DNA of 64,000 bases, from positions 1 through 64,000 of the forward strand of contig NW_027590882.1 of assembly GCF_964213995.1 (NCBI RefSeq), written 5' to 3'. How positions within the stretch are numbered: the first letter of the stretch is position 1; every line of letters starts with the position of its first letter. The notes under the pieces were generated by a model. The model saw only the letters and a list, made by a program, of their open reading frames with translations. It was not told the origin of the DNA and ran no database searches. The DNA is from Mustelus asterias. Its lineage: Eukaryota. This document shows, in pieces, positions 14,195-61,437 of the stretch. The translations under genes and the position numbers were made by a program.

Positions 14195-14444
14195 GTCTCT
14201 CTGAGTGTAGATTGAGCTTCAGACGGCCTGAGACGTGCCTCCTCTCGGACAACACCCAGTTTTGTTTCCGGGGTGAGGTGGATTCGTGTTCGCCCGTGTA
14301 GCGGAGGGCCCCGGGTCGGAACCGGGCGGAAACTTTGGGAGGGAGGTGAGCTGCTGCCTGTTGCCTGGCCTGCCTGTCGCCTGACCTGCCTGCCTGTCGC
14401 CTGGCCTGCCTGCCTGTTGCCTGGCCTGCCGCCTGGCCTGCCTG

Positions 14445-17225: not shown

Positions 17226-17253
17226 GTGGTGACGGTGGCACAAAGCTGCTGAC

Positions 17254-21995: not shown

Positions 21996-22419
21996 ACTGC
22001 CTGCTTGCCTGCCATCCGGCCTCTGGAGGGTGCGCTCTCCCCGGGGGGGGGGGGGAGGAAGAGAGGACAGGGAGTGACTGGAGGAGAGGGGGGGGGCGAA
22101 GGCGTTTGGACTGTCTCTTTTCCATCTGCAGTGGGGGGGGGTGAAGACCTTTCCTATTTCCCCTACCCACTACTGCTGCCCCCGGGACCGGCACCCCCTC
22201 CCCTTTTCCCTCCTGACTGGGGCACCGGCCTTGTGCCTCATCTCCCTCCTGCTCCTCCAACCTCCTCTCTCCCTCTCTCGCTCCGGGGAGAGAGCACCTA
22301 CACCCTTCCCCGCCTACCCCACCCTGCCTTCCCCACCCTGCCTTATCTTCCCCATCCCACATACGCCCTGCCGTGCATCTGGGCAGTCTCGGGGTGGGTG
22401 TAGCACTTCCCCTGATACC

Positions 22420-24516
22420 ATGGCGACATCACCAGCGTCGCCGGTGGCAGGGCCTTCTCGGCCCACCTATGCGGGCGTGGCGGCTGCCAGAGCCCCCGCC
22501 GCTCCCAAGGCCCTGCCGCCATTCTCTTTAATCACGCGGCAGCTCGGGGTGAAGTGCTACGCCCACCCCGACATGTCTATCGAGGCCTGCGTTAAGGCAA
22601 TGGCTGGGGTTGTCGGCCCCTCAGCCATTGTCGCGGCCTCAAAGATGTACGGCCGGGCCGTATTCTTCCTGAAGGCCGAGCGGGCGGTTCGCCTCGCCCT
22701 GGAAAAGGGGCTCACGGTGGGCGGGACGTTCCTGGCGGTGGACCCATTGGAGGCCACCGCCCACAAGATAGTAATATCGAACGTCCCGCCCTTCCTACCG
22801 AGTGAGCTCCTCCTCCCCCACCTCCATCTACTGGGGGAGGTCAGGTCCGGGGTGCAGCCGATCCCGCTCGGCCTTCGGGACCCCTCCCTCCGCCACATAT
22901 ACTCCTTCCGGCGCCAGGTTTTTGTCCGCCTGGCCCGGGAGGAGGAACTGGAGGGAGGGTTCAATGTCCCCCACGAGGGGACCACGTACCGGGTCTTTTG
23001 GTCCGCGGACGGTGTGCGGTGCCATGCCTGTAAGGAGGCGGGGCACGTGAGAAAAAACTGCCCCGTCTCCAAGGCCGCCGACCACCAACCCAAGGCGGCC
23101 GCAGCTGGCACCGCAGCCCCCTCTCCCCCCAAGCGAGTACCATCTGCCCCCCCGCGAGGGGAGGCCACGCCGGTAGCAGCTGCCACCTCAGCTGCCGGCG
23201 GGGGGGGAGCGGAGCCCCCGCGCGGCCAAAAGGCCCAGAAGGGACCTACAAAAAAGAAGGGGGGTACCGGAACCCCGGCCCCCAGGGAAAACACCCCAAC
23301 CACCCCGGCAGCCGGCTCGGGGACCGCCTCAGTCTCCACCTGCGCACCCCCCCCACCACCACCACCATCTGCCGGGCCCGTGGGCTCTCCGGGGCCTAGT
23401 GCTGGGTCCGGCGCCCGGGATCATGGGCCCGAGCATGGGGGGGTAAGCGACCCCGAGCCGGCAAAACTGGCGACGCCGCCACCTCGGGGGGAAGTGACGG
23501 GAGAGCAGGGGGGGCGCGGCAAGGCGAAGAGGGGCGGAGGGCGAGGGGCCTCGCCTGCCCGAGGGCAGGTTAACAAAAAGAGGCGGGGCCCCTCGGGCAC
23601 CGTAGAGTTCGAGGTCTGCGTGCCCCTCCCTCCTTGTGAGTCATCTCCTGCCGTGCCCCCACCTGTCTTTGTGCCTTGTCCCGCGAAAAAAGGGGGCAAG
23701 GCACCCTGTAAATCCAAGCATGTGTTGCCTCAGTCCCCCGGCGAGGAGTCTCCGGGGCCGGGTGGCAGCGGGACCCCCACGGTTCCGTTCCACCCGGCCG
23801 GTTACAACCCGGAGTTCTTCTTCAGTCTGTCGGGGGACTGGGGCGACACTCCAATGTTCACGTCCTCGTGCGGCGGTGGCGAAGAGACGATCCACTCGTC
23901 CTCTCCGTCCCGACCTTGGACGCTGGACATCCCCAACCTCAGTCCGAAAGATACACCGGACCTGGGGGGTGTCCAAGCGTCTGGGGCGGGGGGGGCGGCT
24001 GGGCCGCCGTCGCACGGGGGCCCGCAATCCGGGAAAGGTGAGCCCGGGGGGAACCCCTCCTCCACCGATCCTGGGGGTGGGATCGGGGAGGGGCTAGGGC
24101 TAGTTGGTGGCTCCGTGCCGCCCGCCGTACGTCCTGCGGCGGGGGACTCGGAGTCGAGGGGCGACCGCCCTGAGGAGGTCAGCGGCTCGGTGGAGGGCAC
24201 GGGGACACTTTCAGAGTCTGCCCAGAGCGAGGCGGGGGACTCCCTCGTGCCCCCCACCGAGTCGTCCCTCATCCCCTCCAAGGACCTCAGGGTCTTTATC
24301 CGTAACCATTCCGGTCGCTCCGACATAATCCGGCTAGCCCTCGGCCGCTGGCCGGACCTGGCGCAGCTCGTCCGGTCCGTGAAGGCATGCTCGCATGCCT
24401 CCGCGGGCCTGGAGAAAATAGAGCGGCGCTGGGTACTGCGGTTCCTCCACAGGCTCGAAAAGGTGGAGGGTGGACTGGTGAGAATTGCGCCAGCGCCCCC
24501 CCACACACCTAGTTAA
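22420..24516 (+). CDS. Intact Tx1 ORF1 of copy C (698 aa, CCHC zinc knuckle, long low-complexity linker)
   Basis: ACCATGG start, uninterrupted frame, CHACKEAGHVRKNC motif. Confidence 0.88.
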   Translation: MATSPASPVAGPSRPTYAGVAAARAPAAPKALPPFSLITRQLGVKCYAHPDMSIEACVKAMAGVVGPSAIVAASKMYGRAVFFLKAERAVRLALEKGLTVGGTFLAVDPLEATAHKIVISNVPPFLPSELLLPHLHLLGEVRSGVQPIPLGLRDPSLRHIYSFRRQVFVRLAREEELEGGFNVPHEGTTYRVFWSADGVRCHACKEAGHVRKNCPVSKAADHQPKAAAAGTAAPSPPKRVPSAPPRGEATPVAAATSAAGGGGAEPPRGQKAQKGPTKKKGGTGTPAPRENTPTTPAAGSGTASVSTCAPPPPPPPSAGPVGSPGPSAGSGARDHGPEHGGVSDPEPAKLATPPPRGEVTGEQGGRGKAKRGGGRGASPARGQVNKKRRGPSGTVEFEVCVPLPPCESSPAVPPPVFVPCPAKKGGKAPCKSKHVLPQSPGEESPGPGGSGTPTVPFHPAGYNPEFFFSLSGDWGDTPMFTSSCGGGEETIHSSSPSRPWTLDIPNLSPKDTPDLGGVQASGAGGAAGPPSHGGPQSGKGEPGGNPSSTDPGGGIGEGLGLVGGSVPPAVRPAAGDSESRGDRPEEVSGSVEGTGTLSESAQSEAGDSLVPPTESSLIPSKDLRVFIRNHSGRSDIIRLALGRWPDLAQLVRSVKACSHASAGLEKIERRWVLRFLHRLEKVEGGLVRIAPAPPHTPS

Positions 24517-24544
24517 GTGGTGACGGTGGCACAAAGCTGCTGAC

Positions 24545-27500
24545 ATGAAGGTGACCATAGCCAGCCTCAACATCAACGGCAGCAGTGGGCCACACCGCAG
24601 GTTCCAGAACTTCTCGGTCCTCCGTGACGGGAAGCATGCGGTGTGTTTCCTGCAGGAAACCCACAGCGTTCCGGGAGACGAAGCCCAATGGCTCCTGGAG
24701 TGGCGAGGGGGGGTCTACATGAGCCACCTCACGCTCGCTTCTTGCGGGGTGGCTATCTTGTTGGCCCCGCGTTATAAGCCGGAGATCTTGGGGGTCAAGG
24801 AGCCGGTGCCGGGCCGGTTGCTGCACTTGATGGTCCGTGAGGGGGGCGTGGTCATTCACTTGCTGAATGTCTACGTCCCGACCGCCGGACCACAGCAAAC
24901 GACTTTCTACGAGAAAGTGTCCGCTCACATCGACACCATCGCGGGTGGCGAATGCATTATCCTCGGGGGAGATTTCAACTGCATCCTCGAGGCACGGGAC
25001 CGCACCGGCCCCTGGCTGCGCACTCCGGCGGTGGTGAAATTGCGGGACCTGATCGGGTCCCACGACTTGGTGGACGTCTGGAGACATCTCCATCCTGGCT
25101 CCAGCGCCTTCACTTTCGTGAGGCCTGGAGTCGGAGCGTCCAGGCTCGACCGCCTTTACATTTCGAAGGCGCACGTGTCCGGCGTGTCCTCGGTCTCCAT
25201 GCGGCCGGTGTCGAGCACGGACCACCACCTGGTGTGGGCGGACTTTGCGCCGTCTGGCATCCGGCGGGGGTCCGCGTACTGGCACTTTAACTTCACGCTG
25301 CTGGAGGACGAGCGCTTCCTGGACTCGTTCCGTCGATTCTGGGCCGGCTGGAGAAGGAAGCGGGGAGGCTTCCCCTCCTTGAGGCTCTGGTGGGATGTGG
25401 GCAAGACTCACGTCCGTACCTTCTGTCAGGGGAATGTGAGGGGAGATGCCCCTTTCGTGGCGCAGGGCCGTCATTGCCCTGCTGCCCAAGAAGGGGGATC
25501 TCCACCTGCTCAAGAACTGGCGCCCGGTCTCCCTCCTCAGCACGGATTATAAAATCTTTGCCAGGGCTATGGCTTCACGCCTTGGATCCGTGCTGGACCA
25601 CTTGATCCACCCTGACCAGTCCTACACGGTCCCGGGCCGTTGTATACATGACAATCTCCACCTGGTCCGGGACCTAATCCATCACACCCAGAGGGCTGGT
25701 CTGTCGGGCGCCTTCTTGTCATTAGATCAGGAGAAGGCGTTCGACAGGGTGGAGCACGAGTATTTACTCGGGACTCTGCGGGCATTCGGGTTCGGGACGC
25801 ATTTTGTCGCCCGGATCCGATTACTGTACTCTGCCGCAGAGTGTCTGATTAAGGTTAACGGGTCCCTGACGGCGCCCCTTCGCTTCGGGAGAGGAGTACG
25901 GCAGGGCTGCCCCTTGTCCGGCCAACTGTATTCCGTATGCGTGGAGCCATTCCTGCGCCTCTTGCGGAGGAGGTTGTCAGGTTTGGTCCTGCGCGGACCG
26001 GACGTAGGGGTGGTCCTGTCAGCTTACGCCGACGACGTGCTCCTCATGTTCACGGACCCGGCTGACCTGCGGAGGATGCGAGAATGCCAGGCGGTGTACT
26101 CCGCCGCGTCCTCCGCCAGGATCAACTGGGCCAAGTGCTCCGGACTCCTTGTCGGTCCTTGGGAGATGGACCCCATTCCGGAGGAGCTCAGGCCTTTCAC
26201 CTGGAGCAGGACCAACCTCCTCTACTTGGGGGCCCATCTCTGCCCAGCCGAGGAATCCTGGCCGGCGAACTGGCGGGAGCTGGAGGCCAAAGTCTCTGCC
26301 CGCCTGAGTCGCTGGACAGGACTGCTCCGTGTGCTGTCCTATGGGGCATGAGTTCACGTCATAAACCAGCTGGTCGCCTCCATGCTGTGGTACGGGCTGG
26401 TCCCTTTGACCCCTCCCCTGGCTTTGTCGCCGATATCCAGAGAACCCTCCTGCGGTTCTTCTGGGGCAATCGACTGCACTGGGTCCCTGCTGCGGTTCTG
26501 CATCTCCCGCTTGAGGAGGACAAACAAGGTCTGGTGTGCCTCCACACTCAGATAGCGACCTTCCGCCTCCAGGCCCTGCAGAGGTACCTTTACGTTGAGC
26601 CCCCTCCACAGTGGTGTGCCATGGCGACACATTTCTTCCGCCAGTGGCACGGCCTCAATTATGACGTGCAGCTCCTGCATATCGAACTGGGGCGTGCTTC
26701 GACCACCCTGCAGGAGTTGCTCGTCTTTTACCAGGACCTCCTCACTGTCTGGAACACGGTCGCCTCGTGACGCAGCTCTCCCCCGTCAGGAGTAGCGGCT
26801 CTCGTGCGAGAGCCGCTGCTCAGGAATCCGCTCCTCCAGCCGTATAACTTCAGGTGGCTGGCGGAGAGGAGGGCTGTGGACGCCGGGGTGACCAGAATCG
26901 GGGACGTGCTCGATGGCGGAGGAGCGGGCTGGATGAGTCCCCGCGTGCTGGCTGAGCGCGCGGGGACAACTGTCCGGCACGCGGCCAAAGCCATCCTAGC
27001 CCTTAGGACGGTCGTGCTCGGCCCCGAAACTGCACGCAAACTCGAGGCGGTGCAGGTGTGCGGTGGGATCCTGCCCGAGCGTTCCCCTGTTCAGACGGAA
27101 TTCCACGTTGGACAAAACCTCAAACCCCCTTCCTGGGTGAGGTGCCCCACAGCATGAGCCACCTCGCGGGAATGTCCTCCGTGCCTTTTTCTACCACGCG
27201 GAGGCGTTTCCTGTGCGGGCTGCCGCTGCCACCTCCTCGCCTGTCACCCGGATACACCTTGGCGGGCCTTGTTGCCGCCGGGCGGTGGAGATCCCCGCTG
27301 GAGGTCCCTCTACGGAGGGATCTCCCCCAATTACGTCGGGGACCTGGGGTGGAGGGTGATGCATGCAGCAGTGCCGCACCCCCGTAGGATTCACTGATTC
27401 ACGGGCTCCGAAGACTGCCCTTTCTGTGGCCTTGTGGAGTCCGTGGACCATGTCTATGTTGTGTGTCTTAGGCTGCACTCCCTTTATGTTTTCCTAAAGA

Positions 27501-27829
27501 ACCTTTTGTTGATGTTTAGTCTGCACTTCAGTCCCATGCTCCTGATCCACGGACACCCGGTGCGGAGAGGGGAGGGTCGGGATGGTGACCTCCTTGTGAA
27601 CCTGCTCCTCAGCCTGGCGAAACGCGCCATTTACCGGTCCAGGCAGCGGGCGATCGAGGGGGCCGTCCACCCTGACTGTCTTCCCCTCTACCGCGGCTAC
27701 GTTCGCATCCAGGTCTCCATGGAGAGGGAGCATGCGGTGTCCATGGGCGCGGTTGATGCCTTCCACGCCCGTTGGGCACCGCAGGGGTTGGGGTGCGTTA
27801 TCGACCCTAATAATCACATTTTAATTTGA
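24545..27829 (+). pseudogene. Disrupted Tx1 ORF2 of copy C
   Basis: APE 24545-25430, frameshifting deletion, RT core 25446-26351, further stops and indels downstream. Confidence 0.9.
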
Positions 27830-28329
27830 TCTTTTTAAGTTTCCTTTGTACTTTGATTTCTGTTCGGGCTGTTCCCCCTCCTTTTGGGAGCTGCCCCTTT
27901 TACTTTGTCCTGACTTAATCTGAGTTTGTTTATTTGATTTGGCCTAAAAAGAGGGCAACATCTGGGAGGAAATCAATGTTTCCCCCTTTCCATTTCTTTT
28001 CTCATTCTGGGGGAAATTGGGGACTTGCACCATCTGAAGGGAATGAAGTGAATTCGGTCTGTATATTCCACACATTTTTCCTCCAGTAATGTAGACATTT
28101 ATCTGTCTGGCCGCCTGCATGGAGATTTGCAGGTCTCTGTGTGTCCAGGACAGGAAGCAGTGAGCATGGATCTGTCAATCAGCCTCAATCAGCACCTTCA
28201 GGAGAATTGGGAGGGTGAATATTAGATACAGCAGAGTGAGAATGGAGGGAGAGTGTGTGGGATGGAGATTTACAGCTTTGGGGAATGAGAGAGGAAGGAA
28301 TGTTCCATAGAAATTAGAATGATAATATG

Positions 28330-30426: not shown

Positions 30427-30469
30427 ATGGGAATCCTTCTTGTTTTCAGCCTGTGTGTCTGTTTACCCC
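30427..30469 (+). CDS. Leader exon of NAR-TCR V (MGILLVFSLCVCLP)
   Basis: ATG at 30427, 14 hydrophobic codons, phase-1 donor C|gtgagt at 30470. Splices in frame to acceptor tttccag|GG at 30614. Confidence 0.9.
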
Positions 30470-30613: not shown

Positions 30614-30895
30614 GGTCTTTCAGTCAGTCAGTGACACAGAGCCCGGAAGCGGTGACCAGGAAGGAATGTCAGTCTCTCACCATCACCTGCGTTTTACATG
30701 GTTATTACTATTACTTAGAAAATGGACATTTCTTCAAACAAACCCAGACCGGGACGGAGTGGGAGCGGATCTCCAGCGGAGGGAGATTTGTTGTGTCTGT
30801 GAACAAAGCAAAAAAGACATTTTCGCTGGAAATTCGGGATGTGAGAGTTGAAGACACCGCCACCTATTACTGTAAAGCTCAGTACCGGTACGACA
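30614..30895 (+). CDS. NAR-TCR V exon (IgNAR-like N-terminal V domain)
   Basis: SFSQSVTQSPEAVTRKECQSLTITCVLHGYYYYLENGHFFKQTQTGTEWERISSGGRFVVSVNKAKKTFSLEIRDVRVEDTATYYCKAQYRYD. It has the VNAR-like short C'-C'' region (ISxGGRF, SLxIxDxxVED, YYCKA), an extra FR1 Cys (RKEC) and is followed by an RSS. Confidence 0.92.
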
Positions 30896-30933
30896 CACCG
30901 TGATGGGCCTCGGCTTCCAGCGATACAAAAACT
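30896..30933 (+). other. RSS of NAR-TCR V (22-bp spacer, 23-class)
   Basis: Heptamer CACCGTG 30896-30902, 22-nt spacer, nonamer ACAAAAACT 30925-30933. Confidence 0.9.
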
Positions 30934-31296: not shown

Positions 31297-31365
31297 GGTT
31301 TTGATGCTGAATTGTACCACTGTGTTGATTGGAAAGTCACAGTGGAAGGAAGCTGAGCAAATACC
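31297..31365 (+). other. NAR-TCR D segment (TTGATTGGAAAGT, 31325-31337) flanked by 12/12 RSS
   Basis: GGTTTTGAT-12-CACTGTG | 13-nt core | CACAGTG-12-GCAAATACC. Frames read LIGK, stop and DWK. Confidence 0.92.
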
Positions 31366-31676
31366 TGTGCACAATTACAATATAAATTCTCAGGGCCCAG
31401 ACAGTGAATCATTGGTTTGACGATATTATCGCTGTAATCTGGATTACTTCTATTGTAATCTCCACCACTCACATCTTTCTTTGATTTTTTTTGCTATATA
31501 TGAAGTTAATATTTCCTCCCTGCAGCCATTTACTGAGACCTTGGGCCTCACAAAGTACAATTTGAACCGACAGAGACGGTGAAACGTTGAATATTGTTTA
31601 TTAATTTTAAATCCCCCGAATAATTGGACACTTCCGATTGACTGGTGATGGTTTCTCGGCAGATTGAGATGTCGAT

Positions 31677-31774
31677 GGTTCTTGTACCGGGGAGACTGAG
31701 AGAGGTGCCACTGTGTACTGCATGGGAATATGATTATGTGGATGGATCCGGGACGGTGGTGACTGTCACAGCCG
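31677..31774 (+). other. NAR-TCR J segment with 23-RSS (TAWEYDYVDGSGTVVTVTA)
   Basis: Nonamer GGTTCTTGT 31677-85, 23-nt spacer, heptamer CACTGTG 31709-15. Coding 31716-31774 has the IgNAR-like DGxGTVVTV motif, with phase-1 donor G|gtaagt. Confidence 0.92.
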
Positions 31775-33537
31775 GTAAGTGACTCCAAACCCCGCCGTGT
31801 TACAGACTGTCTCGTTTAATGTTCCCCTTCACTTTATCATTGTGATCTGTCTCGTTTCAATCCAATCGAATCTTCCTATGCAAAATCATCCGTTACAGAT
31901 TTCGAGTTGGGAGCAGGATGTGATTCTGGAGTCGGGTCCAGGTCAGTCCCGGGGAAAGTGTCTGTGTGGCCTGATGGAGTCGGCGGTCAGCGGGGCAGGG
32001 ATAGTGGGCTGAGGCTTGTGGGTGGGGGTGGTGGTGAGGCGCTGGGTGCGGTTCAGTGTTCTGTGAGAGTTGACAGAATCTGGGCGATTGTTTTAAGAGG
32101 CACATCAACATCAAGAACTCTGACACTCCTGGGAGTTTTTTTTTAACAAACTCAAATTGACAACACCCCGGAATCCACTCTGGATGTGATATGTGACTGG
32201 GAGAGGTTTGTCTCTCGCTTACAACCCGGCAGCGGGGTCTCAGAGCTCTCTCCTGGGCAGTAGATTGCAGTCCTAGCCGTGCAATGTCAATAAGGTACCG
32301 GGTGAATGAGATCGATGTCACTGCGGCCAGTCCATTTAACCGCAGTGACTCACTCAATACCTGACCCGGGAGACAAACAGAAAATTAAACAACGGGCTTC
32401 AGGTATAAGGGATCTTGTTGTAGGTCCAAAGGAATTTTGTAATAAAGAAATCAGTGGCTGAAATTAGTGACATTGTGCCTGATATTTCTTTAAATATCCT
32501 CCTTATAAACAATAACTTTTTCTCATTTTCCACCGTTAGTGGTTAATTCTGGAGCACAGGTCTTCAGTAAATTGCTGGGATACTTCCAGAGCCCATAGCC
32601 TTTGCAGTATCCTGTGCCTTCAGCCGGTCCTGAAGTCACGTGGAGTGAATCAAATTGGATGAAAATTGACATCAGTGATGCTGGGGACCTCCGGAGGAGA
32701 TTGAGATGGATCATCCACTCGATATCTCTGGATGAGGATTCTTGCCAAGGCTTCAGCTTTATCTTCACCGGATTGACAAATGAGTTATAGGGATGTCTGG
32801 TGTTGCTGCCGGCATTGCCTCCTGCAGTCTTCATTGAACCAGTGTTAATCCCTCGTTTGCTAATGTCAATGCAGGGGACTTAGCACGATTTAGCACGGCG
32901 ACTGTGCCATACTACACGATGGAGTGAAGCTCAATGTGAAGACAATAAATTGTGTCCACATGGACTGCATGTGGTCACTCCTACTGATACTTCTCTGGTG
33001 ATGCATCTGCGGCAGTAAGGTTGCTGAGGCTGAGGTCAAATATACTTTATTCCCTATTGGTAGTTTCCTCGCTACCTACCGCAGTCCCAGTCTGGCAGTT
33101 ATGTCCAGCTATGTGCTACCGAGCCAGTCGTGGTGATTTATATTGAAGCCCCCTAACCAGGATACGTTATGCATGTTTGACATCCTCAGTGCTTCATCCA
33201 GATGTTGTTCAACATGGAGGAGTGTCGATATGTCAGCAGAGGCACATGGTAATCAGCAGACCGCTTCCTTGCCCATGTCTGACCTGATGTCATGAGACTT
33301 CATGCGGTCCAGAGACGGTATTGTGGACTCCCAGGGCAAGTCGCTCCCGACAATATCATGCCGCCAGCTCTACTGAATCTGTCCTGCCAATGGGACAGGA
33401 CATTCCGGATTTGTGATGGTTGTTTGTGGGCGATTGCTGTAATGTATTTGTAGCCCTGATCAGTGTTAACTGAAATCACACAATGCAGTAAGAGTGGAGG
33501 ATGATGTGGTAATTGTATCAAGGAGAACAGGAACAAT

Positions 33538-35972: not shown

Positions 35973-36290
35973 ATTTCTCTTCCCTTGTATCCAAGAATCC
36001 GCCTCTCCAAATCTCTGCTGCCGATGACACGGTTACATTAAGCTGTGAATATTCAGGAATCTGTCAGTACACAGTACACTGGTACAGTCAGCCCCCAGGG
36101 CAGACTCTGAAATACTTGCTGCAGAAACACACTTCAGGAGGGGGCAATAAAGAAAACGCTGCCGGGGAGAGAATTTCTGCTTCTATCGATTCTGTCCAGA
36201 AAATCAGCCGGTTAAAGATCTCCAAACTGCAACTAAGCGACTCGGCTGTCTATTACTGTGGACTGAGTCGGCACAGATATACGGTGGAGC
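35973..36290 (+). CDS. TRDV: Leaderless supporting TCR-delta V exon of NAR-TCR
   Basis: Acceptor tcctgcag|AT in phase 1 matches the NAR-J donor. DFSSLVSKNPPLQISAADDTVTLSCEYSGICQYTVHWYSQPPGQTLKYLL...LQLSDSAVYYCGLSRHRYTVE has canonical C, WYxQ and YYC plus an extra CDR1 Cys. No leader exon was recognised upstream. Confidence 0.92.
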
Positions 36291-36329
36291 CACAGTAGCT
36301 GAATCTCCCTTAACGCCCGTACAATAACC
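36291..36329 (+). other. 23-RSS following the supporting V
   Basis: CACAGTA, exactly 23 nt, ACAATAACC. Confidence 0.88.
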
Positions 36330-36511
36330 TCCCAGCCTCACAGGAGTGCACCAACCTCTCTCAATAGCACCCCTCTCAGCCCACTCCCAGCCGCTGACCC
36401 CCATCCCCACCGTGATGTTGACCGAGTTTATCATATTACTGGTCTGACCCAACCCTAATCAAATCAGTCGGACACACGACAGAGAGAAAGGGTGGTGAAC
36501 GGGACCGCAAT

Positions 36512-36599
36512 AGATCTTCTTATTGGATCAAACCCTGTGCAACATATGAAAAGGCTAAGCTCATCTTTGGCAACGGGACCAGGCTGATTGTGGAACCCA
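36512..36599 (+). other. TRDJ: J segment 1 (TYEKAKLIFGNGTRLIVEP), 12-RSS, potentially functional
   Basis: AGATCTTCT-12-CCCTGTG (weak nonamer), FGxG motif, donor A|gtaagt at 36600. Confidence 0.88.
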
Positions 36600-38830: not shown

Positions 38831-38921
38831 GCTTTCTGCTTGGGCAATAGTCACTGTGTGTATATTGCTGATAATGAAAAACTGATATTCGGCAGCGGCA
38901 CCCGACTGCAGGTTGTGCCAA
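38831..38921 (+). other. TRDJ: J segment 3 (YIADNEKLIFGSGTRLQVVP), 12-RSS, potentially functional
   Basis: GCTTTCTGC-12-CACTGTG, FGSG motif, donor A|gtaagt. Confidence 0.9.
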
Positions 38922-40480
38922 GTAAGTGCGAGTCCACCTTCATTTCCTCCCATTAGATACAGATTTCTGCTGAATGGTGTCGGGTGAAAGGCCGGTAAAG
39001 AGCCAAGGCAGTGCTTGGAATGAAGGAGAAGCCATTGCACCAATCAATTAAGCTATTAGGCACCGAGTATCGAGGTCAGCTCACTGTTCATTAAGCCGTG
39101 TCATCAACACCAGTTGAAACATTAGGCATCAGTGATGTGACATCGAACTGAAATTGGGTTACTAATAGGATAGAAAATGCCCATTTAGCAGGTTGAGTCA
39201 AATGCCCACTGATTTGAGTAATTATCTACATATATTTCATTTTCAAGCTTGTCTTTGTTAAAACTAATAATCTTGCTAAAACTATACAAGGTACGATTTA
39301 GACCACATCTGGAACACTGTCCCCTTACATTAGGAAACCTATACTGGCATTGGAGGCAGTTCAGGGAAGGCCACTACTTTGATCCCAGGTATGGATATGT
39401 TTTTTCGGAGAGTTTGAGTATGTTGGGCCTCTACTTAGTGGAGTTTAGAAGCATGCGATGTGACCTTATTGAGACTTATTGGATTCTCAGGGGACATGAC
39501 AAGGTTAGATGCTGAGACGTTATTACCTCTTGTAGGACCAGAGGTCATAATCCCAAAGTATGAGGTTGCCCATTTATATGATGAAGATTTTCTTCTTTCA
39601 AGCCAGCAGTGAATCTGTGGAATCATTTACCGCAGAGAGCTGTACAGGTTGAATGTTCAGATTTTTAACCCACAGGGCAATCGAGGGTTACGAGGATACA
39701 ACGGGAAAGAGGTATTCAGAATTATCACATCAGCTAATTCATGATCTCATTGAATGACCGATGGGCCAAATGGCATCCTTCTGCCCCGTCGTCCTATGGT
39801 CTCCGGTCTTTGTTAAACTGCTGACACGAATGCATGCTTGAAATAAGGCTTCAAAGTGAAATGTTGGTCAACGATTATCAACAACAGGTTGATGTTTTGA
39901 ACCAGGTGTTATAGTTCAAATTAAAGGGTCACTCCTTTAAAGACAGATATGAGGAGACTTTTTTCTCTCTTAAAGAGTAGTGAGTCTCGTCATCTCTCTT
40001 CTTCAAACATCAAGGGGAACAGGGCCTTTGATTATTTTAAACACAGCTAGATAGATTCTTGATTAACAAGGGATAAACGGTGATCGGGAGTAGGCAGGAA
40101 TGTGGGGGTGAGGTTACAATCAGATCAGTCATGATCTTACTGAATAGCGGTTAGGCTAGAGTGGCCAGTGCCTTACTCCGACTCCCACTTTGCATGTTCG
40201 TATGTGTTGATGTCAAACTTTTTTCCCAGGATTTGTGTCTCCTGGGTGTTCAGGGAGAAGTACCGGTGAAGATGGAAATTGTGAAACACAGTCAATTCAT
40301 TATCCAAATATTGTTCCCTGATATAGTCAAAAAAACAGTGGGAGCTAAGTGTGAGGGAGAGGGAGGGAACGGTTATATTTGGTTCAGGAGAGAAGCTAAT
40401 TAAAAGAAGTGACATGATACAAACTGAATGTGAGCTAGCCCTGTGTTCATATGGCTGGGTCGATATTTTGTTGTAGCTGT

Positions 40481-40538
40481 TACTACCGAACTGAGAAGCT
40501 TGTCTTTGGCAAAGGGACCAAACTCACTGTGGAGCCCA
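40481..40538 (+). other. TRDJ: J segment 4 (YYRTEKLVFGKGTKLTVEP), intact coding and donor but no recognisable RSS
   Basis: FGKG motif and A|gtaagt are present. No heptamer ending in GTG sits directly upstream. Confidence 0.8.
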
Positions 40539-41172
40539 GTAAGTCCTCAACTATCTTCCATCATGATCTGCTTACATTAGGATGACAATCAATATTTACA
40601 GTTCCAAACATATCACCAAGTCGTGTTTTAAAAAAAAATCAGTACACGCTTAAAGGGAGGAGATGCAATATAATGGCCATTCATAACTTGGGGAGGTCTT
40701 GTGGTGCAATGGGCTAGAATCCCTACCTCTGAGCTAGAAACGCCGGGTCCGAGTCCCTACCCTTGGACTTGATGAACAAGAAAGGTGAGAAAGCAACGCT
40801 GCCAAAGATTGGGAGTGAGAGGGAGACTCCTGCTCAGCCACGCTTGATGTGTAGTATGGCTCTCTCAAGCTCTAAACCCTTCGCAAAAGCCGAGCGACGT
40901 GTTGCAGCAATAGCTATCACTGAAGGCAGAAGAATTCTGCCTAAATGCACCACTCGGTGCGGAGAGGCAACTTGGCTTTAAATTTGGCCTTGGATGTGCT
41001 TAGCTTTGTAGAATGTTATCAGATGTATTGTTCATCTCTTGGCGATAGATAATTTTTAAGGTTTACCATTCGCACATCATGGCAGTTGTTGAGGCTCCCA
41101 CTGACATCAGTGAATATGCCAGTGTCCTTGCTGTGTACACTGGATGGAATCTGAATGAGCTGATGCACTGGT

Positions 41173-41266
41173 AGCTTTCTGCTGGTAACTAGTCACGGTG
41201 CTCATTACTATGACGGTACTTATAAACTCGTCTTTGGCTACGGGAAACAACTGAATGTTGTGCCAA
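41173..41266 (+). pseudogene. TRDJ: J pseudogene 5 (HYYDGTYKLVFGYGKQLNVVP), splice donor lost
   Basis: Heptamer CACGGTG 41194-41200 with GCTTTCTGC-like nonamer. Donor reads ataagt. Confidence 0.82.
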
Positions 41267-41389
41267 ATAAGTGCCAGGTGATTTCTCTTTACCCTTCGAT
41301 GGATATTTCTGCAGAATCCATGTCTGGCGAATGGTGACAAAGAGGGAAAGTAACGCTTAAAATTAAAAACAAGCTGTTAGATGGATTTA

Positions 41390-42500
41390 TGTATCATTAG
41401 ATAATTAATTAGAACGATAGAGATCCAGAGGATATAATCAGCAAATTCGTAGATGATACACAAATTGGTGGTGTGGTAAATAGCGAGGAGGAAAGCCTTA
41501 CATTACAGGTCGATATTGAAGGACTGGTCAAATGGGCAGAGCAGTGGAAAATTGAAATTTAACTCTAAAAAGTGTAAGCTGATGTATTTTGGGAGGACTA
41601 ACAGGGCCAGGGAATATACAGAAGTTAATTGAAACTGCATGGAAGGAAAGTTAAACTGCTAGCTATGTCTTGTACTTTTTGAAATAGAGTACAGCAAATA
41701 AAGCAAAAGGGTTAAATGGGGATGGATTTCAGGGAGAGGAATAGTTCTATTTTTGCTTTGGAGATCACCTGGCATTACAATTTGAATCCCAATCGATGGT
41801 CAAATCACCAGGTCAAGCAGGTCAAAAACAACCTCTTGCAATACTGTCAGCACGGGAGTTACGGATTTGTGTAGCATCTTCCATGATTGGCCAGAACATT
41901 GATTACAGGAGTTGGGACGTTTTGTTGAAGTTGTACAAGACATTGGTAAGGTCACATTTGGAATACTGTGTACAATTCTGGTCACCCGATTATAGAAAGT
42001 ATATTATTAAACTAGAAAGAGTGCAGAAAAGATTTACTAGGATGCGACCGGGACTTGATGGTTTGAGGCTGGATAGACTGGGACTTTTTTATCTGGAGTG
42101 TAGAAGATTGAGGTGTGATCTTTAGCGGTTAATAAAATAATGAGGGGTATAGATCAGCTCGATAGTCAGTTTCTTTCCCCAAAGGTAGGGACGTCTAAAA
42201 CTAGAGGGCATAGGTTTATGGTGAGAGGGGCGAGATACAAATGTGTCCAGAGCGGCAATTATGTCACGCAGAGGGTGGTGAATGTCTGGAACAAGCTGCC
42301 AGAGGTAGTAGTAGAGGCGGGTACAATTTTGTCTTTTAGAAAGCATTTAGACAGTTATATTGGTAAGATGGGTACAGAGGAATATGGGCCAAATGCAGGC
42401 AATTGGGATTAGCTTAGGGGTTTAAAAAAAGGCTTCATAGACAAGTTAGGCCGAAGGGCCTGTTTCCATGCTGTAAACCTCTATGAATCTCTGACTCTAT
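41390..42500 (+). mobile_element. CR1/HER1-like LINE fragments
   Basis: LYKTLVRSHLEYCVQFWSP, TRGHRF, and CTCTATGA tail. Confidence 0.82.
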
Positions 42501-42507
42501 GATTGTA

Positions 42508-42567
42508 TCATCCCCACATCTGAAAGGCCGATCCTTGGTACTTGAACAAAACTCACTGTGGAACCTC
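42508..42567 (+). pseudogene. TRDJ: J pseudogene 6 (PTSERPILGT*TKLTVEP)
   Basis: In-frame TGA in the GxG motif, poor donor, and the RSS position is occupied by a LINE 3' tail (ctctatga repeats). Confidence 0.65.
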
Positions 42568-42847
42568 GCATGCATCCTCACAAAGTGCAATGGTCTCACC
42601 CAGCATTTACAGAAAATCTGAACCATATTTGCTGAGATTGTAAAGTGGATAGAAATATATGACATATGGAGCTAACAGGCAAGGAGTGGGAATTAAATGT
42701 AAATTGGTGGATGGGGCGAACATATTTATTTCAGGATATAACCTGCCCTGACTATTGAAGTCAGCAGAATCTGAAATTGAACTCAAAACTCAAACTCAGG
42801 ATAAATAAAATATAAATGAATCTTATATTTCTGCTCAGGTGTTTGTA

Positions 42848-42934
42848 CTTTTTGCCGCATTATGTACACATGTACTAGCACCAGAACTTTGAATCTTATC
42901 TTTGGCAGAGGAAACAAATTCACTGCGCAATCCA
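42848..42934 (+). pseudogene. TRDJ: J pseudogene 7 (STRTLNLIFGRGNKFTAQS)
   Basis: FGRG motif, degenerate RSS, donor ataagt. Paralog of J8. Confidence 0.75.
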
Positions 42935-43450
42935 ATAAGTGGTTTTAAATTTTCAGTTTGGACCTGGTTAGAGTATGAGTAACTGAAGTTACCTCGTTTT
43001 TTTGTTGCGTCGGAAATGGGCATTGCTGGCTAGGCCAGCACTTACATAGCCTGTCCCTCAATGTGGAAGGCAGTGGTGAGCTGCCTTCTTGAACCTGCTG
43101 CACTCGTCCATGTGTTGTGTGTATCATTCCATTCCTGCCTACAAAACATTTCCATTCTGTACAGAGATTGTGGGGAGTGTGGTGGCCAATGGCTACTTGA
43201 AGTTAGCAAGTGCATTAAGTTTCTGACCATTCTTTCCCTCAAAGTTCCTTTTTGCACGATGCAAGTAAATAATTTATTGACCTATTACGTTCAAATGGGT
43301 GGGAAGTGAGGGGGGAGACATTTATATTTTTCGCTGGATATAACCTGCCCTGGCTATTGAAGTCAGCAAAATCTGAAATTGAATTCAAACTCAAACTTAG
43401 GAGACATATAATATAAATAAATCATTCTTCTGCTCATGTGGTTGGGTTTA

Positions 43451-43538
43451 GTTTTTTGTCCCATTGTGTACAGATGTGCTGGCACCAGAACTTTGTAACT
43501 TGTCTTTGGCAGAGGCAACAAATTCACTTTGCGACCCA
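43451..43538 (+). pseudogene. TRDJ: J pseudogene 8 (GTRTL*LVFGRGNKFTLRP)
   Basis: GTTTTTTGT-12-AGATGTG, in-frame TAA, donor ataaga. Confidence 0.78.
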
Positions 43539-43711
43539 ATAAGACATTTGAAAACGTCAGTTTGGATCTGGTTGGAACATAAGTAATTGACCTTTCCTTA
43601 AAGGTTCTCAAGGGCTCACCCTCTTGTGAACTTTGTATATTCCCCTGCCTCCGAATTAATGAGTATGCTTCATCATTACTAAAGGACATCTGCAACTTCA
43701 CTCCAATGGAA

Positions 43712-43789
43712 GGTCTATGTCTGTGCCCTTTATACTATACATTATGACTATACTGTGAAGCTGCGGCACCCAGTTGACAGTTGTGCCAA
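43712..43789 (+). pseudogene. TRDJ: J pseudogene 9 (FG region deleted; ...GTQLTVVP)
   Basis: GGTCTATGT-12-TACTATA degenerate RSS. The 3' half and A|gtgagt donor match J10, with an internal deletion or frameshift. Confidence 0.72.
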
Positions 43790-43934
43790 GTGAGTACGAT
43801 TGGAAGTTACTCTCATTCTGTTTCATGTCGATTATCTTTTCGCTATATTGTGTCTGACAAATAGCAACCAGGGCAACGATACAACGTATTACATGAAATA
43901 CAAGTGAAGGCATTCTGTCCGTAAAATGAACTTC

Positions 43935-46880
43935 AGAAAGATAGAACATGGAACATTACATCGCAGTACAGGCCCTTCGGCCTTCGATGTTGCGCCGACC
44001 AGTGAAACCAATCTAAAGCCCATCTATCCTCCACTATTCCAAAATCATCCATATGTTTATCCAATGACCATTTAAATGCCCTTAATGTTGGCGAGTCCAC
44101 TACTGCTGCAGGCAGAGCATTCCATGCCCTCACTAATCTCTGAGTGAAGAACCTACCTCTGACATCTGTCCTAAATCTATCACCCCTCAATTTAAAGCTA
44201 TGTGCCCTCGTGCTAGCTATCACCATCCGAGGAAAAAGGCTCTCACTATCCACCCTATCTAATCCTCTGATCATTTTGTATGCCTCTATTAAGTCACCTC
44301 TTAACCTTCTTCTCTCTAACGAATACAACCTCAAGTCCCTCAGCCTTTCCTCATAAGACCTTCCTACCATACCAGGCAACATCCTAGTAAATCTCCTCTG
44401 CACCCTTTCCAATGCTTCCACATCCCTCCTACAATGCGGCGACCAGAACTGTACGCAATACTCCAAGTGCGGACGCACCAGAGTTTTGTACAGCTGCAAC
44501 ATGACCTCCTGGCTACGAAACTCAATCCCTCTATCAATAAAAGCGAACACTCTGTACACCTCCTTAACAACCCTATCAACCTGGGTGCCAACTTTCAGGG
44601 ATCTATGCACATGGACACCGAGATTTCTCTGCTCATCCACACTACCAAGTATTTACCATTAGCCCAGTACTCTGTATTCCTGTTACTCCTTCCAAAGTGA
44701 ATCACCTCACACTTTTCCGCATTGACCTCCATTTGCCACCTCTCAGCCCAGCACTGCAGCTTATCTATGTCCCTCTGTAACCTGCAACAACCTTCTGCAC
44801 TGTCCACAACTCCACTGACTTTAGTGTCATCCGCAAATTTACTAACCCATCCTTCTTCGCCCTCATCCAGGTCATTTATAAAAATGACAAACAGCAGTGG
44901 CCCCAAAACAGATCCTTGCGGTACACCACTAGTAACTGAACTCCAGGATAAACATTTCCCATCAACGACCACCCTCTGTCTTCTTACAACTCGCCAATTC
45001 CTGATCCAAACTGCTAAATCACCCTCAATCCCATGCCTCCGTATCTTCTGCAATAGCTTACCGTGGGGAAACTTATCAAACGCTTTACTGAAATCCATAT
45101 ACACCACATCAATTGCTTAACCCTCATCCACCTCTTTGGTCACCTTCTCAAAGAACTCAGCAAGGTTTGTGAGGCACGACCTACCCTTCATAAAACCGTG
45201 TTGACTATCCCTAATCAAATTATTCCTTTCTAGATTATTATAAATCCTATCTCTTATAATCCTTTCCAAAACTTTGCCCACAACAGAAGTAAGGCTCACT
45301 GGTCTATAATTACCAGGGTTGCCTCTACTCCCCTTCTTGTTGTGGTGTATATGGATTTCAGCAAAGCGTTTGATAAGGTTCCCCGTAGTAAGCTTTTGCA
45401 GAAAATACGGACACATGGGATTGAGGGTGATTGAGTGGTTTGGATCAGGAATTGGCTAGCTGTAAGAAAACAGAGGGTGGTGGTTGATGGGAAATATTCA
45501 TCCTGGAGTTCAGTTACTAGTGGTGTACCGCAAGGATCTGTTTTGGGGCCACTGCTGTTTGTCATTTTTATTAATGACTTGGATGAGGGCGTGGAAGGAT
45601 GGATTAGTAAATTTGCGGATGACACTAAAGTCGGTGGAGTTGTAGACAGTGCGGAGGGAAGTGACAGGTGACAGAGGGATATAGATAAGCTGCAGAGCTG
45701 GGCTGAGAGGTGGCAAATGGAGTTTAATGCGGAAAGGTGTGAGGTGATTCACTTTGGAAGGAGTAACAGGAATACAGAGTACTGGGCTAATGGTAAGATA
45801 CTTGGTAGTGTGGATGAACAGAGGGATCTGGGTGTCCATGTGCATAGATCCCTGAAAGTTGGCACCCAGGTTGATAGGGTTGTTAAGAAGGCGTATGGTG
45901 TGTTAGCTTTTATTGGTGGAGGGATTGAGTTTCTGAGCCAGGAGCTCATGCTGCAACTGTACAAAACTCTGGTGCGGCCGCATTTGGAGTATTGCGTACA
46001 GTTCTGGTCGCCATATTATAGGAAAGATGTGGAAGTGTTGGAAAGGGTGCAGAGGAGATTTACCAGGATGTTGCCTGGTATGGTGGGAAAATCGTATGAG
46101 GAAAGGCTGAGGGGCTTGAGGTTGTTTTCGTTAGAGAGAAGAAGGTTAAGAGGTGACTTAATAGAGGCATGCAAGATGATCAGAGGATTAGATAGGGTGG
46201 ATAGTGAGAGCCTTTTTCTTCGGATGGTGTTGGCTAGCACGAGGGGACATAGCTTTAAATTGAGGGGTGAGAGATATAGGACAGATGTTAGAGGTAGGTT
46301 CTTTACTCAGAGAGTAGTAAGGGCGTGGAATGCCCTGCCTGCAGCAGTGGTGGACTCGTCAACGTTGAGAGCGTTCAAGTGGATAAACATATGGATGATA
46401 TTGGAATAGTGTAGATTAGAGGGGCTTTAGATTGGTACCACTGGTCGGCGCAACATCGAGGGCCGAAGGGCCTGTACTGCACTGTAATGTTCTATGTTCT
46501 ATATTCTTGAACAAGGGGACAACATTTGCTATCCTCCAGTCTTCTGACACTATTCCTGTAGTCAATGACGACATAAAGGTCAAAGCCAAAGGCTCTGCAA
46601 TCTCCTCCCTAGCCTCCCAGAGAATCCTGGGATAAATCCTATCCGGCCCAGGGGACTTATCTATTTTCACACTGCCCAGAATTGCTAACGCCTCCTCCTT
46701 ATTAACCTCAATCCCGTCTAGTCCAATAGCCTGTATCTCAGTATTCTCCTCGACAACATTGTCTTTTTCCTGCGTGAATACTGACGAAAAATATTCATTT
46801 AGCGCCTCTCCTATCTCTTCAGGCTCCACGCACAACTTCCCATTACTGTCCTTGACTGGCCCTAATCTTACCCTTGTCAT
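43935..46880. mobile_element. Minus-strand CR1 LINE (43935-45339 + 46503-46880) with an antiparallel same-family copy nested at 45340-46502
   Basis: Host frame ..WRIANVVPLFK|KGSRGNPGNYRPVSLTS is split by the insert. TTCTTG is present at both junctions. Confidence 0.88.
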
Positions 46881-47249
46881 TCCCTAGTCATTACCCTCGA
46901 TAGATGGATAGCGAGCTCAGATCTCAATGCTTAGTTAGACATGCCGCAGGTGGCAGACCAATCTCTGGGCCTCAGCAATGTGACAGACATGGATGTGCGA
47001 CTCACTGGGTGACCTTGCATCCTGGTGAAGTTATGTAACTGGAGGGAAGCGATGTCCTGCTCGTATTACCGCAAAATTATTAACTCCGAAACTCAGCGAA
47101 TATGTGAGGGACCTGGGTTCGAATCCCGTCATGGCAGATAGTGGAATTTGAATTCAATAATCTGGAATTAAGAATCTACTGGTGACCAGGAAAACCATTG
47201 TCGATTGTCGGAAAAACCCATCTGGTTCATTAATTTCCTCTCGGGAAGG

Positions 47250-48530
47250 AAACATAGGAACATTGAAAATGGGAGCAGGAAGGGGCGTTTGGCCTTTCAA
47301 GCATGATCTGCCATTTATTATGATCATGGTTGATCATCCACTCAATAGCCTAATCCTGCTTTCTCCCCATTAACCTTTGATCCCATTCGCTTCAAGTGCT
47401 ATATCCAGCCGCTTCTTGAATACATTCAATCTTTTGGCAACAACTACTTCCTGTGGTAATAAATTTCACAGGCTCACCACTCTTTGGGTTAAGAAATGTC
47501 TCCTCACCTCCGTCCTAAATGGTCTACCCGGAATCCTCAGACCCCTGGTTCTGGACTCCCGCACCATCGGGAATATCCTCTCTTCATCTACTATGCCTTG
47601 TCCTGTTCGAATTTTATAAGTCTCTATGAGATCCATTGTCATCCCTTTAAGTAAGTCTCCCTAATCTATGAAGGCCAAATCACGCCTCATATCTTCATAG
47701 TCTCCTTGATTAAGATTCAGCACAGTAGTCTCCGAGTCAACTACTTCACTCTCCACCTTGATAAAAAATTCTCTCATGTTTTGTTCACTCATCCCCAAGG
47801 GGTCTTGCACAGCTCGATTGGCAATTATTACCTTCTCACGACACAGTACCCAGTCTAAGGTGACCTGCTCCCTCGTTGGTTCCTTCACATATTGGTCAGG
47901 GAAACTATCCCGTATCCGGTCCAGGAAATCCTTCTCTACAGCATTGTGGCTAATTTGATTTACTCAATCAACGTGCGGATTAAAATCACCCTTGATCACA
48001 TGTATTTCTAATTTCGTGTTTAATGCCATTTCCAACATCACCACTGCAGTTTCGCGGTCTGTATATGACACCCACTGATGTTTTCTGCCCCTTGGTATCT
48101 CTCAACTCTACCCATATAGACTCCACATTATCAGAGCTAATATCGGTTCTCACCAGTTTGTTAATTTCCTCTTTAACCAGCAGTGCCGCTCCACCACCTT
48201 TTCCTTTATGCCTGTCCTTCCTAAATACTGAATACCCTGGGACATTCAGTTCCCATTCTTGGGAACCCTGCAGCCGTGTCTCCATAATTCCAATTATAGC
48301 ATGCCCATTTATATCTATCTGCAAGATTAGTTCATCCACTCTATTGCCAATGCTCCGCGCATTAAGGCACAGAGCCTTTCAGCTTGTCTTTTTAACATTA
48401 ATTGTCTCGTTTTTGAATTTTGTCCTTGGTTTCTCTGTATATCATTTTTCGTATTCCCTTTTCCACCTCTTGATTTTATCCTTGTTCCCTCCTTCTCTGA
48501 CTCCTTACATAATTTCCCAACCACCTGGCA
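47250..48530 (-). mobile_element. CR1-like LINE fragments incl. endonuclease region
   Basis: IIGIxETxL, FRKDR..GGG.ALLVKE, GVIYRP motifs. Confidence 0.78.
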
Positions 48531-49488
48531 TATTAGTTTCATTGGGTGACCTTGCAGTATTGTGAGGTGGTGAAACTGGGGGTAGACGATAGCCTAGTGG
48601 CGTTATCGCTAGATTATTAATCCAGGAAATCAACTAGTGTTCTGGGGACCCTGCATTCAAATCCCTCCACGGCAGATGGTGGAATTTGAATTCAATAATC
48701 TGGAATTAAGAATCTACTGTTGACGATGCAAACCACTGTTGGAAAAACCCATCTCGTTGAGTAATGTCCTTTAGAGAAAGAAATCTGCCATTCTTATTAG
48801 ATCTGGCCAACATGTGCAATTTGATTGACACTCAAGGGCAATTGGGAATCGATAATAAACTCTGGCCAGCCAAAGGTGCCCATGTCCCACGAATGGACAA
48901 AAAATATCTCTCTTTTGGAAAATGAGCTCGAGTAACTGTTGATTCAAGTAAACATAAACGCATCTTTCAGACTCAACATGTCTGTTTACCTCTTCGAAAT
49001 ATAACAGTATTATGACAATAAGAACAGATAATGCTGGGAAAAACCACAGCAGATCAGGCAGCATCTGTAAGGAGAGAAAGCTTAGCTAACAAATTAAAGA
49101 CTATCCGTTGAATTGTATTTCTTTTCTGCCAGGTTTTGAGGCGTCACTGGCAAAGCCATGTTGCAAATTTCTGTTAAGCCAATTCAGAGATTGGCAGTGC
49201 AGGCAGAACCTTGTTCCTATGTTACCTAACAAAGTTTCAGAGGCAAAATATACTTCTTGCAGGGGGAGGACGTGGGTGGCTATATTTGACCAGTGGCTGC
49301 CTTGGCTCAGAAATTCTTCACGTTGATAGAATCTTAGAGAATCCAAGGAGGCTATTCGGCCCATTTAGCCTGTGATGGTGGGGAGGGGGAAGATATGCAA
49401 TATCTGTCTCCTGCAGCGAATCAGTGACTGTTCCAGCTTTGTCTTTGCCGTGAACTGCCTGAAATCTGAAACAGTTATCTCAATAGAA

Positions 49489-49566
49489 GGTTTCTGTCTG
49501 AGCAATTGTTACTGTGCTACGAAAAGCTAACGTTCGGCAACGGCACCCAGGTGACAGTTGTACCAA
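49489..49566 (+). other. TRDJ: J segment 10 (YEKLTFGNGTQVTVVP), 12-RSS, potentially functional
   Basis: GGTTTCTGT-12-TACTGTG, FGNG motif, donor A|gtgagt. Confidence 0.92.
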
Positions 49567-50326
49567 GTGAGTGTGAAGTCAGTGTGTTTCTATTCTTTCA
49601 CTCCACATCTCCTCTGTGATCTAGTTTTCTGTTGTAAGTAGTCTAGTCGAGTTGGGCAGAGTGCCAATATAATATGTGGCATGCAGGCGAAGAGATTGCA
49701 CAGTTTTGAGTCAGTTTTGATCTAGCTCAGCCTACCCAGTCATTAGAGGTACATGGGACAGGAGTTGGGACTGCACGCCTCAGTAATATGGTATTGAACT
49801 GAGAAGCAGATTTGTGTACTGTGGACGGGATAGGAAGATTCCACCCAGAGAGTTGATCAAAAAGAAAGAGGGGAGACGAATAAGCACCATTGTTCTGTTT
49901 AAACCTTTGTAATTGTGAATTACACAGGCTTTTCATTTTGTTGTTGAAAAATAAATTCTCCTCATATCAGTCCCATATTCTTTGATTATGAACCCCGGTT
50001 CTGGACCCTGCCGCCATCCTGCATTTATCGTGTCGAATCCTGCATTATGGGTTTTAATGAGATCTTCTCCTCCTGCCTCCCTTCTTCTGAACCCCAGACA
50101 ATAAAATCCTAACCTACTCAATCTCCCCTCATATGTCAGTCCCGCAACTCCAGAATCTGTCCGGTGAACCTTCGCTGCACTCCCTCTTTAGCCAGAACAT
50201 CCTTCCTCGGATATTATTTTGCATTTATTTCTGGACGTAATAATGAACCAGCTGTGGAAGCAAATCGAATCTCAAAAACCTTAGCATGAAAAACAATCCT
50301 TACATTGCTATTCATGTGGGTTATGT

Positions 50327-50414
50327 CGATTTTGTACCATCTGGAATCACTGTGCAAACCCTGCAACCAGAAAGCTTACCTTTGGCAGTGGAACCGAACT
50401 CACTGTAGAACCCA
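50327..50414 (+). other. TRDJ: J segment 11 (NPATRKLTFGSGTELTVEP), 12-RSS, potentially functional
   Basis: CGATTTTGT-12-CACTGTG, FGSG motif, donor A|gtaagt. Confidence 0.92.
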
Positions 50415-51054
50415 GTAAGTGAAACTATTCTCTGCATTTTGTGTCTGGTTATAGTTTAAGAAAGTAATGTCCGATTCTAATGCACCTGTAAAGAATCTTT
50501 ATCCTGTAATAGCAGCTCTTGAGTTGATTGGGAGGGGCAGGAGGCGAGAAGTGGGTAGGGGGGAGTGAAAAATTAAAATGTCCTCTGACAACTCTGTGTT
50601 AGAAGTTACAAACAGCAGATTATGAGACTCCAACAACGATGGAGGAGACCATTAAGCCCATCGCTCTTGCTTCAGGGACAGTAGAATCATCGTCATTGAG
50701 TTTTACAGAACAGGAAGAGGCCCTGCGGCCCATTGTGCCTGCTCCAGCCATTATAACCCTATCTATTCCAATCGCATTTTTCAGCCTTGTATGCTACGGC
50801 ATAAATAATCTTTGGACTTGCATGCCAAGGTCCCTCTGGTTCTCTGCACGTTCTCGCGTCCTGCAGTTCATTGTGTATTCCCTTGCCTTGTTACCCCTCG
50901 CAAAATGCATCACCTCTCACTTTTCAGGTTTAAATTCCGTTTGGCACTGCTCTACCTGTCTGACCAGCTCGCCCATATCGTCCTGTAATCTTTGCAAGTC
51001 AGTGACACTTAACCTCATACGAAAAACATGTGTCCATCCTTGGCTTGACTTTCA

Positions 51055-57786: not shown

Positions 57787-58098
57787 AGGCGAAAGGCCCG
57801 GTAGAACCAAAATTGAGCGTCTTTTACCCGCCAGTGCCACGGGGACCCACCGGCATCGACACAGCTGCAGTATGCTTGGCCTCGGACTTCTCGCCCAACG
57901 CAATCAAGCTCTCCCTGTACACGGGATCGGGCCAGGAGGTCAATGTGACAAGACCCAGTGTCCTATTGGAGAGCGGGAATTACAGGAGCTCGGGTTTTCT
58001 CTCTTTCACCCAATCCGAGGAATCGCCAAACATCACGTGCAAGGCATTTCACGATAATCGAAATTACTCAGTAAACATCCCGCCCACAGTTGAAATTG
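57787..58098 (+). CDS. TRDC: TCR delta constant region, Ig-C1 exon
   Basis: tttcag|AG phase 1, G|gtaagt. KAKGPVEPKLSVFYPP...AAVCLASDFSP...NVTRPSVLLESGNYRSSGFLSF...NITCKAFH contains both Ig Cys. It resembles shark C-delta more than C-alpha (recalled, not aligned), and its position after a NAR-TCR cassette fits delta. Confidence 0.88.
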
Positions 58099-61327: not shown

Positions 61328-61437
61328 ATCGACTGAGGATGAACTTTTTGTCTTTGACGGTGATGGGGCTAAGAATTTTGTTTTTCAAGAGCATTGTCTT
61401 CAATGTCATGATGACGGCCAGGGTGTGGCTATTTTGA
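61328..61437 (+). CDS. TRDC: TCR delta constant region, TM/cytoplasmic exon (DRLRMNFLSLTVMGLRILFFKSIVFNVMMTARVWLF*)
   Basis: ggcag|AT phase 1. Alpha/delta-type TM with Arg and Lys, TGA 61435-37, then G|gtaagg donor. Confidence 0.93.

Follow-up and report, generated by a model that had tools for sequence, protein, structure and literature searches.

A probably inherited V-D2 joint in a NAR-TCR-like delta cluster of Mustelus asterias

Results

The window, that is, the whole stretch of 64,000 nucleotides analysed (G000:C850:1-64000, G000 being the assembly and C850 the contig), contains a whole receptor unit: a leader with a NAR-type V, D and J, then a supporting V with several Js downstream, and finally exons for a C1-set domain and a transmembrane segment (Table 1). 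The NAR-type V has an extra FR1 cysteine in the a-b loop, no canonical tryptophan and a V-D-J of its own, and the translated exon of the supporting V-delta has a CDR1 cysteine. An FR1 cysteine without the canonical tryptophan in the NAR V, and a CDR1 cysteine in the supporting V, are the marks of NAR-TCR given in the relevant section of PMC1845163.

Beyond J1, Js with good 12-RSSs are found at 38858, 49516 and 50354, and J-like stretches with a poor RSS or none are found near 40499, 41227, 42895 and 43499, the last of which contains a stop. A PDB search with the C domain matched only Ig chains. The pair of charged residues in the membrane span is a pattern that we take to be delta-type, and on the strength of this pattern and of the D segments the constant region is a candidate delta-type region. 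The stretch 14300-27900, which precedes the NAR leader, holds a LINE-like element in two copies whose ORFs are long (a 1075 aa frame from 17233), an arrangement that differs from that on C154.

Table 1. Features of the window and related units in the assembly
Feature	Position	Strand	Evidence
Leader exon of NAR-type V	30427..30469	+	ATG to GT donor, open frame
NAR-type V exon (30614-30895) with its 22-bp-spacer RSS, unrearranged	30614..30933	+	open frame, V-set Pfam
NAR D flanked by two 12-RSSs, unrearranged	31325..31337	+	sequence
NAR J, 23-RSS upstream, unrearranged	31716..31774	+	sequence
Supporting V-delta exon, V-derived part, 3' end less 3 nt	35973..36275	+	identity to unjoined V on C154
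D2-derived 15 nt, 5' end less 3 nt, in frame with V	36276..36290	+	equal to D2 of C71, C173, C973
3' 23-RSS of D2, now that of the V-D unit	36291..36329	+	0/39 mismatches to germline D2 RSS
J1: weak 12-RSS (36512-36539), coding part (36540-36599)	36512..36599	+	sequence
Further J segments	38831..50430	+	sequence
Constant C1-set exon, C-delta type (candidate)	57787..58098	+	Pfam C1-set; 19 copies in G000
Transmembrane/cytoplasmic exon, Arg and Lys in membrane span	61328..61437	+	sequence
Joined D2-J1 units	window; C401; C138; C71:11.02 Mb; C119, C96, C436 (one common joint)		
Delta-type (candidate) C exon copies, part 1	C71 (7.14, 11.04, 12.27 Mb), C850, C181, C154, C90, C110, C3311, C138		
Delta-type (candidate) C exon copies, part 2	C115, C123, C401, C111, C173, C106, C436, C119, C96		

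The YYC cysteine of the supporting V lies at 36257-36259. As an earlier note on this DNA had described, it is followed by a 31-nt tail (36260-36290, GLSRHRYTVE) and then by a 23-RSS, which starts at 36291 and has 2 mismatches to the consensus. The RSS of J1 starts at 36512, which is 182 bp beyond the end of the 23-RSS of the tail, and no RSS-flanked D was found between the two in the window; the spacing of about 180 bp and the missing D given by the note thus stand, but the 12-RSS that it assigned to J1 is weak, with 5 mismatches.

When the tail is compared with unjoined copies, it is seen to consist of 16 nt of the 19-nt end of the supporting V and 15 nt of the 18-nt D2, with 3 nt trimmed from V, 3 nt from D2 and 0 nt added. 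The same comparison reveals neither N bases nor microhomology at 36275/36276. The V part of the exon has 100% aa identity to the unjoined V on C154 over residues 1-100, and the D2-derived part, the RSS and the DNA up to J1 are identical to the germline D2 on C71, C173 and C973, where D2 is flanked by a 5' 12-RSS and a 3' 23-RSS. In a comparison of RSSs, which the earlier note had proposed, the 39-nt RSS of the tail matched the 3' RSS of germline D2 at 39 of 39 positions and differed from the V RSS at 19 of 39; therefore, on the letters alone, the match to D2 is not a chance effect. The tail is not a long V end; it is a clean coding joint of V to D2, and the 23-RSS behind it is that of D2.

The joint has the features of a RAG coding joint (a 12/23 pair, both signals gone, coding ends trimmed), and the absence of any added nucleotide agrees with the little or no N addition of germline-joined receptor genes. 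The window lacks both D1 and the 19-29 kb of DNA by which V and D2 are separated in unjoined clusters, while its NAR V-D-J and its D2-J are still unjoined. The frame is open through D2, and a stop follows at 36296-36298, within the RSS.

These results alter several details of the earlier account. The CACAGA at 36272, described as heptamer-like and as sitting where a normal V would end, neither marks such an end nor is a leftover heptamer: in unjoined copies of the V, 19 nt follow the cysteine, and the hexamer arises from the joint, being the coding CACA of the V plus the first two D2 bases kept; the reading as a relic was dropped. The note described a D-like 10-mer; the D-derived part is 15 nt long. 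The note had expected 2-4 codons after the cysteine, and these supporting Vs give 6 codons plus 1 nt in 25 of the 30 best V matches.

Among these best 30 matches, the 25 end 19 nt after the cysteine with a V-type 23-RSS and the other five are joined. Unjoined clusters have the order V, D1, D2, J1 with 12/23 signals, and 8 exact D1 cassettes were found. In the seven unjoined clusters measured, on other contigs, V and D2 are 18.7-28.9 kb apart (19-29 kb in round figures), with D1 between them. The assembly contains 19 C exons, with 81-100% aa identity, and 19 D2-J1 units; most C exons have their own D2-J array, and three lie on one 20-Mb scaffold. V cassettes and D-J-C units are combined in mosaic fashion across the clusters, and a join within a cluster is therefore indistinguishable from one between clusters.

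Some further arrangements were observed. Unjoined supporting Vs (L002, L007, L009 and others) are followed by 2-5 tandem 23-RSSs with a 61-bp period. Segments that resemble supporting Vs (L020-L026 and L029) form inverted pairs facing each other at 0.6-1 kb, often with a stop in the second. At C973:93718, a D1-D2-J1-J2 unit breaks off into a short C-rich tandem repeat, and no V was found within the 26 kb upstream of the unit.

Seven of the 19 D2-J1 units are joined on the 5' side, and none is D2-J joined. Seven distinct joints were read, and no non-templated base is needed in six of them (the window, C401, C138, C71:11.02 Mb, the C122 inversion and the C173 NAR D-J); the seventh, the C119-type joint, has at most 2 unexplained bases. 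The C401 joint (L033, C401:858) connects a pseudo-V to D2 with one P base and no N; lying 857 bp from the contig start, it could be somatic. The C138 joint (L036/L139, C138:217701-218500) connects an IgH-type D to the TCR-delta D2 with a 1-nt overlap and no N. This D stands with an IgH-type V, so the assembly contains an Ig-TCR trans-join, and no unjoined copy of its D-J-C unit closer than about 97% was found. At C71:11.02 Mb (L053, C71:11023760) a conventional V is joined to D2, also with a 1-nt overlap and no N. On C122 (L111-L112, C122:393147-398929) a supporting V is joined to a NAR D by inversion, and an intact, perfect head-to-head signal joint is found 5.8 kb away. On C173 (L159, about 95070) a NAR D-J joint has 3 nt trimmed off each end, without N.

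The C119-type joint is an open-frame V-D2 joint common to L010, L014 and L019 (C119:553681, C96:1455106, C436:213728). These are complete paralogous NAR-TCR clusters, 98.1-98.6% alike over the 2 kb around the joint and different in J content and flanks, which form a clade of their own with no unjoined member in the tree. Because a diploid cannot carry three alleles of one locus, this joint predates a duplication and is inherited, and no other joint makes so strong a case for inheritance in a TCR. On the tree as a whole, the joined state requires 4 changes, a number that is not lower than in label shuffles (56/500); hence the tree shows only scattered origins of the joined state.

Four sequencing runs (X1-X4) with the same organism label, from two samples of one study, were used as contigs. 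In X3, from sample S1, a 575-nt contig covers 36025-36599 with 0 differences and bridges both the joint and the unjoined D2-J1 interval. Spliced loose ends suggest that X3 is RNA. A J1-to-C splice, with a paralogous copy of C, and a NAR-J-to-V splice, from a paralog with 5 differences to the window, are also present in X3. In X1, also from S1 and with Tn5 adapter ends, a 57-nt contig covers the joint, reaching 30 letters beyond it on one side and 27 on the other, which falls short of the 31-letter bridging rule; other X1 contigs end exactly at the joint. The depth of the 57-nt contig is 5.2 and that of a C850- and C154-specific contig 3.8; the figure is weighed lightly, contig depth being no share of cells. 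S1, which may be the assembled animal, is the only sample in which the joint was seen. In S2 (X2, X4), the contigs listed continue past the V into its unjoined RSS or pass from the 5' RSS of D2 into D2 itself; none of those listed bridges the joint, and contigs cannot show absence. In the intron 31560-33500, run contigs are mosaics of paralog alleles and match none of the six assembly copies compared.

Discussion

V and D pieces are normally brought together only in immune cells. For the window copy, an inherited joint of germline origin is nevertheless the reading that we favour, with a probability of roughly three in four. Five observations count for it: no unjoined twin of the cluster was found among the best 40 candidates scored per search; seven of the 19 units are joined 5' and none D2-J; N bases are unneeded in most distinct joints, as in germline-joined shark light chains; one joint is identical in three paralogs; and the window joint is bridged in a public run (X3). 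The same N contrast is reported for germline-joined light chains in a section of Lee et al. (PMC2193156). Germline status is far better supported for the C119, C96 and C436 joint, which is found at more than one locus, than for the window joint, which is found in one assembly copy and one sample. Being single-copy and having no mutations nearby, the window joint is datable only as 'very recent'. The first option of the earlier note, a pre-joined V-D using the 3' 23-RSS of D, thus holds for the sequence, and its germline state is likely.

The joint may, less probably, be somatic, stemming from a lymphocyte clone that had expanded or from a mosaic restricted to lymphoid cells, and caught in the assembly and in S1, a reading that we consider unlikely without dismissing it. 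It would account for the single copy and for the identity of V and D2-J1 near the joint to unjoined copies, and spliced TCR reads indicate that lymphocytes are present in S1. The two flanks are also closest to different clusters, as an inter-cluster somatic join would give: the left is 99.4% identical to C154 over 10.8 kb, beyond which structure and repeat content differ, and the right is 99.8% identical to C71 over 27.7 kb and 99.4% over 38 kb, followed by different V genes and a different gene set. Moreover, partial Ig joins are frequent in shark thymocytes, as stated in a section of PMC2435157, so partial joins by themselves are no sign of germline origin. Against a somatic origin, N bases are absent at the window joint and at five others, the NAR V-D-J of the window is untouched, and neither flank has an exact unjoined parent (none was found among the best 40 candidates scored per search; purging of a haplotype could explain why the twin is missing). 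The presence of the joint in the assembly and in further libraries would be unlikely if it were polyclonal, and the complex does contain inherited V-D2 joins, as the joint of the three paralogs shows.

An assembly chimera of two clusters might be suspected in so highly duplicated a region, where the best matches of the flanks lie on different contigs. It is very improbable: the break point lies 3 nt within either coding end, both signals are gone, there is no shared sequence at the break by which an assembler could be misled, and the bridging X3 contig from an independent library largely refutes it. The other option of the earlier note, a D-less V with an evolved long and fixed CDR3 that joins J directly as in TCR-alpha, drew on the lack of a D in the V-to-J1 interval of the window. 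It is refuted, and we give it hardly any credence, because tail and RSS are those of D2 letter for letter and the sister Vs have the 19-nt end, a V-type RSS and D1 and D2 downstream, as is normal for a cluster.

If the joint is of germline origin, the RAG cuts would have been made next to the 23-RSS of V and the 5' 12-RSS of D2, in a germ cell or a very early embryo, with TdT presumably absent, and the joining would have deleted D1 and the DNA between V and D2. The fused V-D2 keeps a 23-RSS facing the 12-RSS Js, and a single D2-to-J join, skipping D1, would complete the supporting domain, so that a T cell is predicted to need one join for this domain instead of up to three. The predicted CDR3 has a fixed start, GLSRH-RY(TVE), with variation confined to the J side, and the antigen-binding NAR domain would remain fully diversifiable. 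Before D2-J joining, a transcript through the RSS would meet the stop and be sterile.

The evidence favours a neutral by-product of leaky germline RAG rather than a selected joint, because the joints also involve a pseudogene, an IgH D and an inversion that is non-productive. Both supporting-V joints (the window and the C119 type) are open in frame, so selection may still have played a part. A broader reading is that TCR-delta expanded to many Ig-like miniclusters that RAG rearranges in the germline, and that V-D joins of the supporting domain are being retained because its role is structural, as a partial, still segregating parallel to V-mu-j. It takes in at least two independent, open-frame inherited V-D joins, and we regard it as tentative and somewhat doubtful. 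Inherited V-D joins in shark TCR-delta, if true, would mean that germline RAG activity reaches TCR loci, beyond Ig, in recent, datable events whose unjoined relatives are still present. The frequency of RAG germline editing would then become testable, and so would a convergence of two-V TCRs towards supporting domains of low diversity.

NAR-TCR is reportedly the doubly rearranging TCR-delta of cartilaginous fish (Criscitiello, 2006). The window resembles it, as described in part of PMC1845163, in its L-V-D-J NAR cassette and its supporting V-delta with a CDR1 cysteine followed by D, J and a candidate C-delta, and differs in that the supporting V is pre-joined to D2. Shark TCR has been described as a translocon in sections of PMC12227049 and PMC6795676, the former dealing with elasmobranch TCR-alpha/delta. 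In contrast, the organisation found here is cluster-like, with the cassette in one of about 19 D-J-C units, some of whose C copies may be haplotypes.

Germline-joined shark Ig includes the NS4 light chains (in part of PMC2193156) and partly joined VD-J IgH clusters (in part of PMC6795676). The present joints resemble the former, within the same section of PMC2193156, in being RAG-type, trimmed or bearing P bases but poor in N, in arising by several independent events, and in that joined genes nest among split relatives; unlike them, they lie in a TCR locus, and the window joint is known from one sample. Marsupial TCR-mu and its platypus counterpart, in sections of PMC7615758 and PMC3457774, are likewise two-V TCRs in tandem clusters, with a low-diversity supporting V and a diverse N-terminal V. 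There, V-mu-j is a fixed, fully joined exon whose origin is ascribed to retrotransposition, and platypus V-mu-2 has lost its D segments, whereas here the joining is limited to V and D, affects a minority of clusters and came about in place through a deletion, and D2-J recombination is still required. In a non-exhaustive search of the literature, including parts of PMC5931798, PMC13433984 and PMC10787021, no germline-joined shark TCR was found. Germline-joined receptor genes are thus known for shark Ig and marsupial TCR-mu, and the case in shark TCR-delta is apparently new.
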